Under the pieces are notes generated by a model that made no database searches, was not told the origin of the DNA, and saw only the letters and a list, made by a program, of their open reading frames with translations. This document shows, piece after piece, positions 266 through 9,665 of a stretch of 58,980 nucleotides of DNA; within the stretch, counting starts at the first letter, position 1, and each line of letters starts with the position of its first letter. Position numbers and translations under genes: made by a program. This DNA is from Guillardia theta CCMP2712 (taxonomy: Eukaryota > Protista > Cryptophyta), in contig NW_005434447.1 in NCBI RefSeq assembly GCF_000315625.1, positions 1 to 58,980 on the forward strand, given 5' to 3'.

Positions 266-300
266 TAATTGGTACCAAATAGTATCCACCCCCTTTAGAT
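266..300 (-). other. GGTACC-core conserved site, copy 1 (outer arm cut off by the terminal repeat)
   Basis: Reverse complement reads ATCTAAAGGGGGTGGATACTATTT-GGTACC; core at 271-276. Shares TGGTACCAAATAG with copy 2. Confidence 0.7.
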
Positions 301-618
301 GACATTGCCCTGTTTGGACCCGTGAAGGCATAGAAGAGTATCCTTTAAAATACTTCAGGTTTTAAGTCTGTGAAACGAAACAATCTGCGCGTTTCTGTCG
401 AATACCCCTTTTGTAAATATTGTTTCTACTAAGTTTAATCAGAATTTTTATTAGTATTGCAGTGTCAATATAGAATAGATATTTTTAATTTTAAGCAGTG
501 TAATAGATATTTCATAAGCGGTTTATAATTCTTATCGTTTTTATAAACGTAGTCATAATATTGGCCGTCTGGATAATGGTCTTCAGGGAGGTTTACATTC
601 ATCGACGGCGAAGGGCAT

Positions 619-2030
619 TTGCGCTATTTTGGGATCCCGGCCGAAAAAAGGGTCTTTCTTGCCTTTCTCCCCTTTTGTTGGGTGATCCTCACCGCTATGC
701 CTACTTTCTCACCCCTCACTTTCAGACATTTTCCCGTTTTCACATTATTGTTTGTAAGCGTTGTACTTTTTTCCTTGCGTTCTGATTTTTTGTATAATAT
801 TATGACCAAGGAAACCCCTCTCGTGCAACATCCTCTTTGTAATCTCAAAGGAAAGATATCAGTGCGTGCAAGTACTTTGCTAGTCAAATATTTCTATTAC
901 AAAACGTTTGTGTTGACGGAGAGTCAAGGTTGCTTACTCATGGACATGTAAAATGTAATGCAGGCAGTAAATTCAAGCAGAACGCAATTAGAACGTCGGA
1001 TATCCGGGAGCAAAGGTGGTATACAAGAACGGCCATCATGGCGGATTGCTGGTCCTCAGGGGCGAATCCTACTCATTTGCTTTTTGGATTGTACCAAACG
1101 CACCACCTGGTAAAGATTTTGAGTTTGAGGAGGAAACCATATCATATGCTGATCACCAGAGGTTGTTCATTCAATAGGAACACTTACATCTCTTCGATAA
1201 TGCTGCGTTTACTGTGGAAAATAGTACTTGACAAGAGAAACCTCACTTTTGTAAACTTTGAATATTTTGACATCCCACTCAAATCGCAAATTTACCATTG
1301 TTTCAACGAGGTTTTCGTCAGCCCTCAGTATGGTCCTTTGATCAACACCCAAGAAAGACTATTGTTTGTCCAAGATATACATAAATTTCTGGGATACAGT
1401 TTTGATCTTCGACCTTTCACTCGATTGGCGGTGGGGTTTTATCATCGCAAGGAAGGAACCTCCTTGCGCACGATTTGTAATTTGGGCATTCTTTATCGTG
1501 AACTTTGTATGCTATACAACATATATTGTTTCAATCTGACTACCACATCTGATATTCCTGTTTTGGTGCAAGTTCGACGATTCGACGATGCAGATATCAT
1601 TCTTAGTCCTCACGGCTCTCATTTGTTTTTGCTTTGGTTCTCATCTCGTCCTAAAATGGTGTTAGAGTTCCAATCTATCCTGTACAACACCAATGTGTTT
1701 CACATTGCCAAAGCTGCAGGAATTGATGCTTACATATCCGTGGGTCATGACATTTCTAGCAAAAATTGTAAGAACAATTCAATCTTAACCAAAACCCATA
1801 AATCGAAATGCAACCAAACAGCGGTCAACAGAACTTTGCTTTGTTATCCTAAGAACTGTCCGCTTGGTACATGTCATGATGTGGTTGCAATTCAGAGTTT
1901 CATGGATTTGCATGTTTCTTCGTCTATTCATCATTTTGAGGTCGGGTTGTTTTCACTTGCACGTCGAAAGTCGATCCCTGCAGAGAAACTGATTACAGCG
2001 AAAAATGACATCACCATCAGTGCAAAATGA
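619..2030 (+). CDS. GT61-family (DUF563-like) glycosyltransferase; probable frameshift near 930 separates the N-terminal TM segment
   Basis: QVRRFDDADIILSPHGSHL..VLEF motif in ORF 930-2030. Hydrophobic anchor FTLLFVSVVLFSL in overlapping ORF 619-951. Confidence 0.7.
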
Positions 2031-2532
2031 TTCTGGAGTCAGTTCGAGCAACCGTGTTGTCGCATGGAGAAGGTTTTCACGTAAATTCCACCTATATTTG
2101 ATCGTCTTATCTTGAAGTTCGTGATAGATACGTATGAACTGATGGAGCCTGAAATATCCTGTAGTTGGCACGCTTCTGAATTGCTAGTGACGGTACCGTG
2201 TTATTCAAAAAAGTGAGCAAAAAGTGCTCCAAATGCGCAAAAGTAAGCGACTTTACATATATACGTTTCAAATTTTAAATGACATGGCGAAATCACTGCA
2301 GGGGTGGAGAACAGGAGTCATACGGTGGTCTCGATGATAATGTTTAGTTTTATTATAGAGAATTTGGTTCTGTTTGGAAAATGTGTCTGTGAAGGGGGTT
2401 GTAAAGTAGATAATGTGTGGTTTTTTGTTATGATTTTCTATAAATCTTTAGTATAATTTGAATAAAAACTGAAGAAATTATAAGAAATCGCGACGTTTGG
2501 GGATTTTGGATGACAATGAATGACGAAGATTT

Positions 2533-3190
2533 TAGTGAACTCGCAACGTTTCGGTTGTTGTTTATGATAATTGTAGTGAACTCGCAACGTTTCGATTGTG
2601 TGTGATGACTTGATGAGAAATTTTGAGTGAGACCGTTGATAATTGTAGTGAACTCGCAACGTTTCGATTGTGTGTGATGACTTGATGAGAAATTTTGAGT
2701 GAGACCGTTGATAATTGTAGTGAACTCGCAACGTTTCGATTGTGTGTGATGACTTGATGAGAAATTTTGAGTGAGACCGTTGATAATTGTAGTGAACTCG
2801 CAACGTTTCGATTGTGTGTGAAGACTTGATGAGAAATTTTGAGTGAAACCTTTGATAATTGTAGTGAACTCGCAACGTTTCGATTGTGTGTGATGACTTG
2901 ATGAGAAATTTTGAGTGAGACCGGGACGACTACAACGAAATCGCGTGTTTTCGAGTATTTAGGTTGATAATGTGATGACTTGATGAGAAATTTTGAGTGA
3001 AACCGTTGATAATTGTAGTGAACTCGCAACGTTTCGATTGTGTGTGATGACTTGATGAGAAATTTTGAGTGAAACCGGGACGACTACAACGAAATCGCGT
3101 GTTTTCGAGTATTTAGGTTGATAATGTGATGACTTGATGAGAAATTTTGAGTGAAAACAGGGATGACTACGATGAAATCGCGTGTTTTTC
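2533..3190. repeat. 72-bp tandem repeat array, ~5 near-identical units plus rearranged variants
   Basis: Unit GATAATTGTAGTGAACTCGCAACGTTTCGATTGTGTGTGATGACTTGATGAGAAATTTTGAGTGAGACCGTT starts at 2566, 2638, 2710 and onwards. Confidence 0.95.
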
Positions 3191-3419
3191 GTATTTTTAA
3201 TGTGTGAAAACTCGGCTAATGATTGAAAAGAGGATGTTTTCGAGTAAAAGTTTGTCAAATTTGCGATGAAAGAGTACTTTTTAGCGCGTTTGTAGCCAAA
3301 AGCGTGTTATTTTTGAGTAGAAATAAGCGAACAAAGTGTTATATAACCCAAATGTGTTATTTTTTATTAGAAATAAGGGAATAATGTGTTATATAACAAA
3401 GAAAATATATATTTTTGTA

Positions 3420-8090: not shown

Positions 8091-8152
8091 CGACCCGGGG
8101 GGGGGGGGGGGGGTTGTTTTTGGTACCATACCCGGGTGGGGGTGGATCGTTT
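8091..8152 (+). other. GGTACC-core conserved site, copy 3
   Basis: GACCC-Gn-TTGTTTTT-GGTACC-ATACCCGGGTGGGGGTGGATCGTT; core at 8122-8127. Confidence 0.9.
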
Positions 8153-8221
8153 CCTTGTTGCCGTGTTCGAACACTCATCTTCAATCAAAGAAAGCTGGCT
8201 CACGAGTTCAGTGCAATTCAG

Positions 8222-9005
8222 TCAAATATGTCGAACAAACTGCATAACTCTCTTCTTATTCCTTTCGTTCACCCGATTGATGACATGGATTCTTTTTTTT
8301 TCACTCAATTCGTTTTCGAGATCATCAACACCGAATTTCACAGGGATAATCGCCAGCAGCACTACATACATCAATGCAAACATACCCGCGAAAAGGGATT
8401 CCAAGAGTTTTTCAATTGTGTCACGGGGAAGTTTCGGCCACGATTCCGTCATCAATTGTACAAATTCTCCAAACATCTCATTCCTCTGTGGTCTAGACAA
8501 CTCGTCTTGATATGGGATTCGCAATACCAACACACCGACATTTTGAAAGAGTTTCTGTAATACTCCAATTATGTCCAACTTCGTCTCGGGGTGACCTGCC
8601 ACATCATGAACAAGCTCAAGACTATCATATAGCATGTGATTTTCCATCCCCCGTCGCTGGGCGCTCGATAACTTGTACCGTGTTATCATCAACCAGTTTC
8701 TTTTGCTCAAATTACCCAGTTCAATGGCCGTTTTTTGCAATCCTTCATCTAACATGTTGAGGACTGTCGTGGTCCTTGCCATTGATTTTGAAGAATTGCG
8801 CAAAAAAAACGGCTAACAAAGTGCTGTACATCGCAAACTTGTGCGCATATACAGACATTCTGTTGACCATAACTTCATATTTCAAGAGCTGTGCACCTTG
8901 ATCGTTCTGTGACATTGCTTTAAAGTCAGGGTTGGGTGTTTGCATCTCCTTGAAATCCTTTTTCTGTTGCTCAACAAGAGCTGGGGAATGCCAAATCTGG
9001 TTCAA
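8222..9005 (-). CDS. Hypothetical protein, probably one gene split by a frameshift near the A-run at ~8802-8809; hydrophobic segment near the C-terminus
   Basis: Overlapping ORFs 8745-9005 and 8222-8803; may extend further into 9002-9259. Confidence 0.5.
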
Positions 9006-9270
9006 AAGCTTCTACCGGAGAGAGCATCTGCCTCCAAAAATCTAGCAACGGTTTTGGGTTTTCGCGAAGGATGTTTGTGAACTCGTGCTTCTTCATTCGA
9101 GTGAAGTTGCAATTCTTGCAGAGTGACATGGAAAACTTGCGCGTAGATTACGGCAGTGTTTTGTTTGTTAAAATGAATATATACTAAAAACCAGTTTTTG
9201 AAACTGCCTCGGGTTTCTTCAGTGTGTATATATTTGTTCATGTCAAAGCATATCGACAATCAACCGGAGA

Positions 9271-9612
9271 ATGAATGCTAATCAAGTGATAGAGCAAGTC
9301 TTTCCAAAGGACAAGAAAAACATGTCTAAAGGTAAATTCACGTACGATGAAATCCAACATATGTCACAATCAAAGCATAATATTCAGCCAAATTCTCCGA
9401 ACATGGGTCATTTCACAGATCAAGAATTTCAACAACTTGCTCAAACTCATTCTACAAAAAAGGTGAAACATGGGAGAAGGGCAACTACGACCGGAGCTCC
9501 GTATTGTGAAAGGTGTATTTCGATGTACAATCAGGTATCAAGAAACCAATCAGTGTTCAACACAAGCCCGTCACATCTCGCAGCGCTTTCTTGTGGATGG
9601 AACCAGATCTAG
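9271..9612 (+). CDS. Small hypothetical protein with CxxC; stop codon abuts GGTACC site 4
   Basis: 113-aa ATG ORF with TATATA at ~9227; contains PYCERC. Confidence 0.6.
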   Translation: MNANQVIEQVFPKDKKNMSKGKFTYDEIQHMSQSKHNIQPNSPNMGHFTDQEFQQLAQTHSTKKVKHGRRATTTGAPYCERCISMYNQVSRNQSVFNTSPSHLAALSCGWNQI

Positions 9613-9665
9613 GGTGGGGGGGGGGCGGTTGTTTTTGGTACCATGCCCGGGTGGGGTGGATCGTT
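9607..9665 (+). other. GGTACC-core conserved site, copy 4
   Basis: Gn-CGGTTGTTTTT-GGTACC-ATGCCCGGGTGGGGTGGATCGTT, nearly identical to copy 3; core at 9637-9642. The GC-rich core begins right after it. Confidence 0.9.

Follow-up and report, generated by a model that had tools for sequence, protein, structure and literature searches.

GGTACC-core motifs in a virus-like island of Guillardia theta as possible attL/attR-like ends of nested elements

What are the four similar GGTACC-containing motifs in the left arm of contig NW_005434447.1 of Guillardia theta CCMP2712 (assembly GCF_000315625.1), and do they delimit cassettes, as in an integron, or mark the ends of nested elements? The window, by which is meant the whole stretch of DNA that was analysed (58,980 nucleotides, positions 1 to 58,980 of the forward strand), was regarded as a 58-kb intron-poor virus-like island in a eukaryotic genome, with 'virus-like' referring to its densely coding, intron-poor style alone. 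The original prediction for this DNA described four sites sharing a consensus around a GGTACC core, which divide the left arm into a segment A, a central segment and a segment C ahead of a GC-rich core, and proposed site-specific recombination, either integron-like or of nested elements. The four cores (at 271, 5911, 8122 and 9637) were borne out, as were their spacings of 5640, 2211 and 1515 bp; they make up 4 of the 16 GGTACC words in the window. The full consensus was present at sites 2, 3 and 4, and site 1 had the inner arm only. The motifs are likely to be copies of a dispersed junction sequence in this genome. Tentatively, we prefer to see in them the attL/attR-like ends of non-autonomous elements that belong to a dispersed family, are nested at this locus and were probably moved by a tyrosine recombinase from elsewhere. 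The sites are as follows:

266..296, minus strand: site 1, core at 271; inner arm only, with satellite in place of the outer arm in the window and AT-only letters there in another copy
5888..5935, minus strand: site 2, core at 5911; left end of the central element, opening a multicopy stretch (5888-6060)
8097..8154, plus strand: site 3, core at 8122; right end of the central element
9612..9668, plus strand: site 4, core at 9637; 91% identical to site 3 and border to the GC-rich core

Each complete site consisted of an inner arm (a G-run, then a T-rich stretch), the core and an outer arm (ATRCCC..GTGGA), and the inner arms of all four sites pointed toward the 2.2-kb centre (site strands -, -, +, +). 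The 17-letter consensus TWTTTGGTACCATRCCC, a pattern derived from the sites themselves, was exact at sites 2, 3 and 4; allowing up to three mismatches, it gave three matches in the window against 0.38 expected, a number reached in none of 100 shuffles. Across 40 flanking positions, 33 were identical for the pair 3/4, 26 for 2/3 and 20 for 2/4, compared with a mean of 11.9 and a maximum of 19 of 40 for the 114 other GGTACC pairs of the window. The two right ends, sites 3 and 4, formed direct repeats bounding segment C (91% identical across 58 bp, with 19 of 20 positions identical in the inner arms), and the two left ends, sites 1 and 2, had 13 contiguous letters in common. Site 1 was within the control range by the 40-position measure, its inner arm resembling the other sites at 11-12 of 20 positions and its outer arm at only 4 of 20. 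The part invariant across all four sites was TTTGGTACCA, and the palindrome is therefore 8 bp long (TGGTACCA). Dyad-symmetric positions numbered only 3-4 of 20 in the intact sites 2-4 and 8 of 20 in site 1. No fifth site was found in the window using a profile built from the four, and there was no Rfam or tRNA match.

The centre, bounded by sites 2 and 3, resembles a self-contained element, with inverted ends, inverted subterminal arrays and one orphan gene:

5997..6205, plus strand: 14-bp tandem array next to site 2, in which a near-core word, TGGTATC, occurs seven times
6210..6282, plus strand: left subterminal 40-bp repeats, inverted relative to 7745-7919
6461..7621, minus strand: orphan open reading frame (ORF) of 386 residues without a recognisable domain
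7737..7919, minus strand: right subterminal 40-bp array, 4.6 copies

Its terminal inverted repeats were 78% complementary over 41 bp, and the subterminal repeats were inverted to each other over 75 bp at 91-96% identity. Apart from its own sub-words, TGGTACCA was the only repeat of at least 5 bp flanking the centre, and it was also the longest repeat flanking the pair 1/4. The TGGTATC copies of the 14-bp array are candidate protein-binding sites. The 386-residue ORF had a single distant relative, P0002 (39% over residues 35-138, E 3.6e-08), with no family match, no relative among the viral contigs, no usable Atlas match and nothing below E 0.07 in the PDB; its structural models were helical and of low confidence (predicted local distance difference test, pLDDT, 37-38).

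Sequencing data comprised two contig sets (X1 and X2) and two raw-read sets (X18 and X19; chromatin immunoprecipitation (ChIP), 38-nt reads, about 12-fold per run). The reads are short and of low depth and contigs drop rare variants, so that only common rearrangements are excluded by these data. Interior depth was flat and single-copy in all four sets, and one X1 contig was continuous from 8131 past 11500 through site 4 (depth 62). Two stretches were multicopy, namely 5888-6060 (197.9 versus about 59 in X1, and 50 and 41 reads versus about 12 at position 5962 in X18 and X19) and, in the contigs, 266..408 (350.8 versus 53-62 in X1, 22.8 versus about 5 in X2); the latter was covered by 15-24 reads versus about 12 in X18 and X19.

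The prediction had also made its case depend on further copies elsewhere in the genome. Copies of the site ends were found in X1, where they were sought at 80% likeness among the loose ends listed, together with the multicopy depth. One X1 contig covering 266-408 had 12 AT-only letters ahead of 266, placing the inner arm of site 1 behind an AT-only arm, and these letters completed a 16-bp palindrome adjoining the core. Another followed the outer arm and core of site 2 as far as 5919 and continued into a different inner arm. In a third, 255 unlike letters were joined to, and inside of, a site-3-like G-run. A copy of site 2 had an outer arm that ran on into letters like the ends of outer arms 3 and 4. 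One diverged contig contained Asp/Ser-type repeats followed by sequence like 7997-8032 and like site 3. The different partner arms of these copies mean that the motif is a dispersed family, the arms of which occur in several pairings across the core. Rearrangements breaking at the core, likewise anticipated (circles of 5640 and 1515 bp, empty sites, an inverted centre), were found in none of the four sets, in which rare events would be missed, and none of the joints listed (three and three) was at a core.

Of the two alternatives in the original prediction, the nested one fits better than the integron one. A tyrosine recombinase encoded elsewhere would insert elements by crossover at the 8-bp TGGTACCA. 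The centre (5911-8127) would then be one non-autonomous element with two inner-arm ends, and its landing site a quasi-palindromic target formed by the two outer arms; sites 1 and 4 would bound a larger related element, or be what is left of such ends, the left one having been cut by satellite. Excision would join the two inner arms into an attP-like dyad, and the present arrangement is presumably now fixed; enzyme, circle and empty site alike are postulated. The centre is read as a recombinase-moved element because the arms switch at a short palindrome and nothing else is duplicated, as tyrosine-recombinase integration leaves it. A reading as recombination junctions is supported by TGGTACCA being the sole repeat of at least 5 bp that flanks the centre and by copies that switch arms at the core; the version with integron-like shuffling was not sustained. 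For nested elements bounded by the pairs 1/4 and 2/3, the left ends have one arm type, the right ends have another and the arrays are inverted, but the conservation of the outer arm at three sites is not accounted for.

Several observations weigh against nested att-like ends. About 30 bp of the outer arm are kept at three of the sites as well as in other copies, more than in the short targets of Cryptons or phaeoviruses; the nested model leaves the conservation at three sites unexplained, so that a model of stacked cassettes stays alive. The computed excision products of the centre were dyads (12 of 20 and 14 of 20 positions symmetric, versus 3-4 of 20 in the intact sites 2-4), but this is not independent evidence because it follows from two similar inverted sites, and the computed empty target of the pair 1/4 was not symmetric (4 of 20). 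No recombinase was identified in the window, and one would have to be supplied from elsewhere. The right ends (sites 3 and 4) seem to be single-copy at 90% likeness, and the copy estimates for the site-1 end disagree (5-6 times in contigs, less than 2 times in raw reads), a discrepancy for which differing strains, bias or, in some cultures, free DNA ends could be responsible. The evidence for arm switching consists of three single contigs at 80% likeness, with short loose ends, among those listed. Neither an empty site nor a circle was seen in X1, X2, X18 or X19, where only common events are detectable; any activity of the sites is hypothetical.

As to function, the sites work most like the att ends of eukaryotic tyrosine-recombinase elements, although they are not placed in any named family and three integron features fail. 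Cryptons have 4-6-bp terminal repeats that are taken as recombination substrates (PMC3212892), and they excise cleanly and invert DNA between targets (PMC9977147). CryptonF and CryptonS are eukaryotic and, like the elements here (TGGTACCA around the centre and around 1/4), have a short direct repeat at both termini as the sole duplication; TATGG at the outer edge of cores 2 and 3 is a further likeness to Cryptons. Cryptons are without terminal inverted repeats, however, whereas inverted ends (41 bp, 78%), subterminal arrays and an 8-bp palindromic core are present here, and autonomous Cryptons encode a recombinase, of which none was found in the window. GGTACC was not in the searched supplements of PMC3212892, the picture tables of which could still hold such ends.

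When phaeovirus ends join, the resulting attP has a short core flanked by inverted repeats (PMC13236599), and these viruses share with the present case virus-like DNA in a eukaryote genome, a short crossover core and repeats near the ends. The joined form of phaeoviruses has inverted repeats; here the computed junctions were symmetric at 12 of 20 and 11 of 20 positions, which follows from the inverted orientation, and none was present in reads. Phaeoviruses further differ in having a CC core, 4-5 bp of homology, targets that are not conserved, a length of hundreds of kb and their own recombinase (PMC13236599), the outer arm here being more conserved. In some recombinase-encoding polinton-like viruses, a minority of copies has partly symmetric junction repeats of 7-23 bp (PMC12220804), and inverted ends and a partly symmetric junction repeat (here the 8-bp palindrome) are common to both. 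Polinton-like viruses of this kind are, however, 14-40 kb long and possess genes for capsid and ATPase as well as long terminal repeats that are nearly identical (PMC12220804, PMC4642659), none of which is found here, where the centre is 2.2 kb and the 1/4 span 9.4 kb; GGTACC was not in the searched supplements for these viruses, and picture tables could again hold such ends. Nesting, and palindromic targets that serve in either direction, are known from some Starships (PMC11162782). Starships carry cargo and show nested or tandem insertion as here, but they are fungal and giant, and their 5' captain recombinase was not found in the window. The telomere resolvase site (telRL) is a long near-perfect palindrome around a 6-bp core, from which the symmetry at sites 2-4 (3-4 of 20) and site 1 (8 of 20) departs. 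No description of the present site was found in the literature covered, which excluded subscription papers and repeat databases, and the accessible parts of PMC10120064, PMC10827195 and PMC12768974 contained nothing on these sites.

Weighing the cassette readings requires the contents of the two flanking segments:

843..2027, plus strand: segment A, glycosyltransferase family 61 frame (PF04577, E 2.8e-06)
2565..5168: segment A, non-coding and AT-rich, containing tandem arrays of 72 bp and 12 bp
5236..5922, plus strand: segment A, ORF of 228 residues with an Asp/Ser-rich tail
8222..9612: segment C, short orphan ORFs on both strands (8222-8782 minus, frames in 8748-9241 minus, 9271-9612 plus)

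Segment A thus held two genes plus about 3 kb of non-coding repeats, and segment C had ORFs on both strands. The last ORF of segment A had been said to stop inside its site and that of segment C right at its site, and both statements were correct: ORF 5236-5922 crosses core 2 and ends in the inner arm, and ORF 9271-9612 stops where site 4 begins. Base composition, by contrast with the claim that it changes at every site, did so at sites 1 and 4 (change points 262 and 9565, within 100 bp) and not at sites 2 and 3, where the nearest change points were about 500 bp off; unbiased GC segmentation gave eight change points, of which four were far from any site. A short hairpin-forming stretch was also present in segment A, at 537-611 (z -2.6 and -3.1); it recurs in the genome with other flanks and had no Rfam match and no match in the viral contigs.

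Integrons have an integrase gene beside the array, hairpin-folding attC sites and mostly single-gene, co-oriented cassettes. The present arrangement is like them in its repeated sites between gene blocks and in ORFs that end at sites, and unlike them in lacking an attC hairpin and, in the window, an integrase, in its mixed orientation (-, -, +, +) and in its multi-gene, largely non-coding segments. Integron-like cassettes in the strict sense were accordingly not upheld, given also the low dyad symmetry of the sites (3-4 of 20) and the lack of a core junction in read data that would miss rare events. A wider version would have A and C each arrive as a circle with one full site and integrate into a resident site, making the sites re-usable landing pads in the way of an integron array or of Crypton-like insertions in tandem. 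That history we consider unlikely, though it has the direct repeats around C (sites 3/4, 58 bp, 91%) in its favour, along with the outer arm kept at sites 2-4 and in other copies, the two ORFs ending at sites, and the Asp/Ser-type repeat ahead of a site-3-like end in one diverged X1 contig; segment C, read on the minus strand, moreover has TATGG at one flank and CATGG at the other, TATGG being the sequence of most CryptonS ends (PMC3212892). It does not predict the two inner arms of the centre or the missing outer arm of site 1, seven folds of the four sites gave no attC-like structure (z -1.45 to +0.90 versus shuffles), the segments contain lengthy non-coding arrays and have genes in both orientations, the window holds no integrase, and no core junction was seen in the four runs, where rare events would be missed.

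The site motifs were also searched in viral and metagenome sequence. In viral contigs, the 17-mer occurred at 16 loci, the site-1 pattern at one and the outer-arm pattern at one; these loci were rejected as relatives of the window, BLAST of the 16 being empty and the other two being phage-like coding matches. The two metagenome matches (a bacterial intergenic stretch and a phage-like contig) had no other likeness to the window. In three phage groups the 17-mer lay 50-70 bases ahead of the gene upstream of the terminase large subunit. Among 54 phage loci (80, less 26 dropped as too short upstream), GGTACC was found upstream in 9 and inside terL in 1; the full motif was found in 2 of the 54 and was not conserved across the phage family, and homology to a packaging signal shared with phages was rejected.

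Quite unlikely, in our view, is that an endogenous large DNA virus supplied the sites as its terminal cleavage/packaging or end sequences, similar to the herpesvirus a sequence and copied inward by terminal recombination, with the site-1 family and its AT palindrome as the true end. The argument for this is one of layout. As in the a sequence (PMC10763189), G/C runs accompany an A/T stretch, with tandem reiterations and both direct and inverted copies, and the G/C runs by an A/T-rich stretch with adjoining reiterations recall the (DR)n-pac1-terminus order (PMC10763189); the site-1 family opens with the AT palindrome of 16 bp that adjoins the core, the island has many genes and few introns, and the 17-mer stands upstream of terminase operons in three phage groups. 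Yet pac1 requires C-runs directly on both sides of the A/T stretch, whereas here, in a by-eye comparison, one abuts and the second lies beyond the core, which is itself palindromic, unlike in the a sequence. Terminase, capsid and polymerase domains were missing from the window, and no window protein (150 frames; 45 ORFs) had a family match to a capsid, polymerase, terminase, integrase or transposase, divergent capsids being able to escape the domain libraries used. The 2 of 54 phage loci with the full motif represent the query's own sequence, and any GGTACC was found at 9 of 54.

Nested DDE transposons, with the inner arms as terminal inverted repeats and the palindrome as a duplicated fixed target, or with repeats that include both arms, are improbable. 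Inverted ends with subterminal arrays, multicopy ends, and a palindrome that is direct and inverted repeat at once would suit them, but no transposase domain scored above the curated cut-off in 150 frames, the terminal repeats are just 78% complementary over 41 bp, no target duplication exists outside the outer arms (the only duplication being the palindrome itself), and independent targets would not have conserved outer arms. Distinctly improbable is a eukaryotic, virus-borne landing-pad system in which a trans-acting recombinase stacks unrelated gene blocks, in either orientation, at a conserved site with two arms and a palindromic core, so that an endogenous giant-virus-like genome would gain its variable end much as an integron array is built. 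Chance likeness of G-rich low-complexity sequence or an assembly artefact, to which the G-runs of the arms and the failure of any contig listed to bridge the satellite/site-1 join or the site-3 poly-G might point, is very improbable, and largely refuted for sites 2-4, with none of 100 shuffles giving three matches, pair identities of 33 and 26 of 40 where no control pair exceeded 19, read depth that is even and single-copy along the arm in all four runs, and a contig that passes through site 4.

Few groups of cargo-carrying recombinase-moved elements are known in eukaryotes (Cryptons, Starships, phaeoviruses, some polinton-like viruses), and finding the ends of such elements is difficult. With its two distinct arms, the 8-bp palindrome offers a precise handle for retrieving, from a single cultured eukaryote, the entire family together with its autonomous partner. 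The sites are useful for asking how endogenous viral islands acquire accessory genes at their ends. If the outer arm were indeed a re-usable landing pad, this would be an integron-like gene-capture device outside prokaryotes.

The remainder of the window consists of the island proper and satellite at both of its ends:

1..265, minus strand: left satellite, a 332-bp high-copy repeat adjoining site 1, inverted relative to the right end
9669..58356: virus-like core, intron-poor and densely coding, with DUF268, a second GT61, LRR, TNFR-like, Ephrin-like and Gly-rich proteins and many orphans
58357..58980, plus strand: right satellite, 1.9 copies of the 332-bp repeat, into which the Ephrin-like ORF runs

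The left satellite had a 249-nt, 100% inverted match to 58450-58698. In X18, depth was about 117,000 in the first bin versus about 12 elsewhere, and in all four sets the satellite stood at thousands of times the interior depth, where depth does not equal copy number and two of the runs are ChIP. Since the 332-bp repeat lies at both ends in opposite orientation and at thousands of times the interior depth, what appear as 'terminal inverted repeats' of the window are host satellite. The satellite is GC-rich with an internal imperfect palindrome, its right copy cuts the Ephrin-like ORF, and its left copy is without 12 letters found in most reads.

In agreement with the earlier statement that no recombinase is recognisable in the window, no such domain was found in 150 frames or 45 ORFs, and the tyrosine-recombinase catalytic-motif pattern occurred in none of 620 window frames. 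One-letter indels between the reads and the window were seen at several places, and some short frames may therefore be sequencing errors. RNA run X17 placed 143 of 19.8 million reads on the window, 102 of them less than 90% alike; it carries the same species label and may be from another strain. The N-terminal part of a 2374-residue protein had no viral relative.

An AT-rich block of the right arm (53379-56064) has sharp GC borders yet no GGTACC site, and inside it lies a 26-bp array of nine copies (53841-54075). Seven of the eight window copies of AAAATTGA, a giant-virus early promoter motif, are in this array, the eighth being at 54094. A 31-bp direct repeat (97%) at 50060-50090 and 51893-51922 surrounds the orphan ORF 50223-51755 and may be a shared promoter or another insertion border; no homologue of the ORF was found, and judged by eye it may be BRO-like. 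A protein of 516 residues (18960-20510) contains 18-residue Cys/His zinc-finger-like repeats with a 54-bp period and had no Pfam match. Tandem paralogous orphan ORFs were present at 28610-30036, as were two similar-looking LRR-type ORFs at 32135-33271 and 51950-53380, one of them with an LRR Pfam match, and together these suggest local gene duplication within the island.

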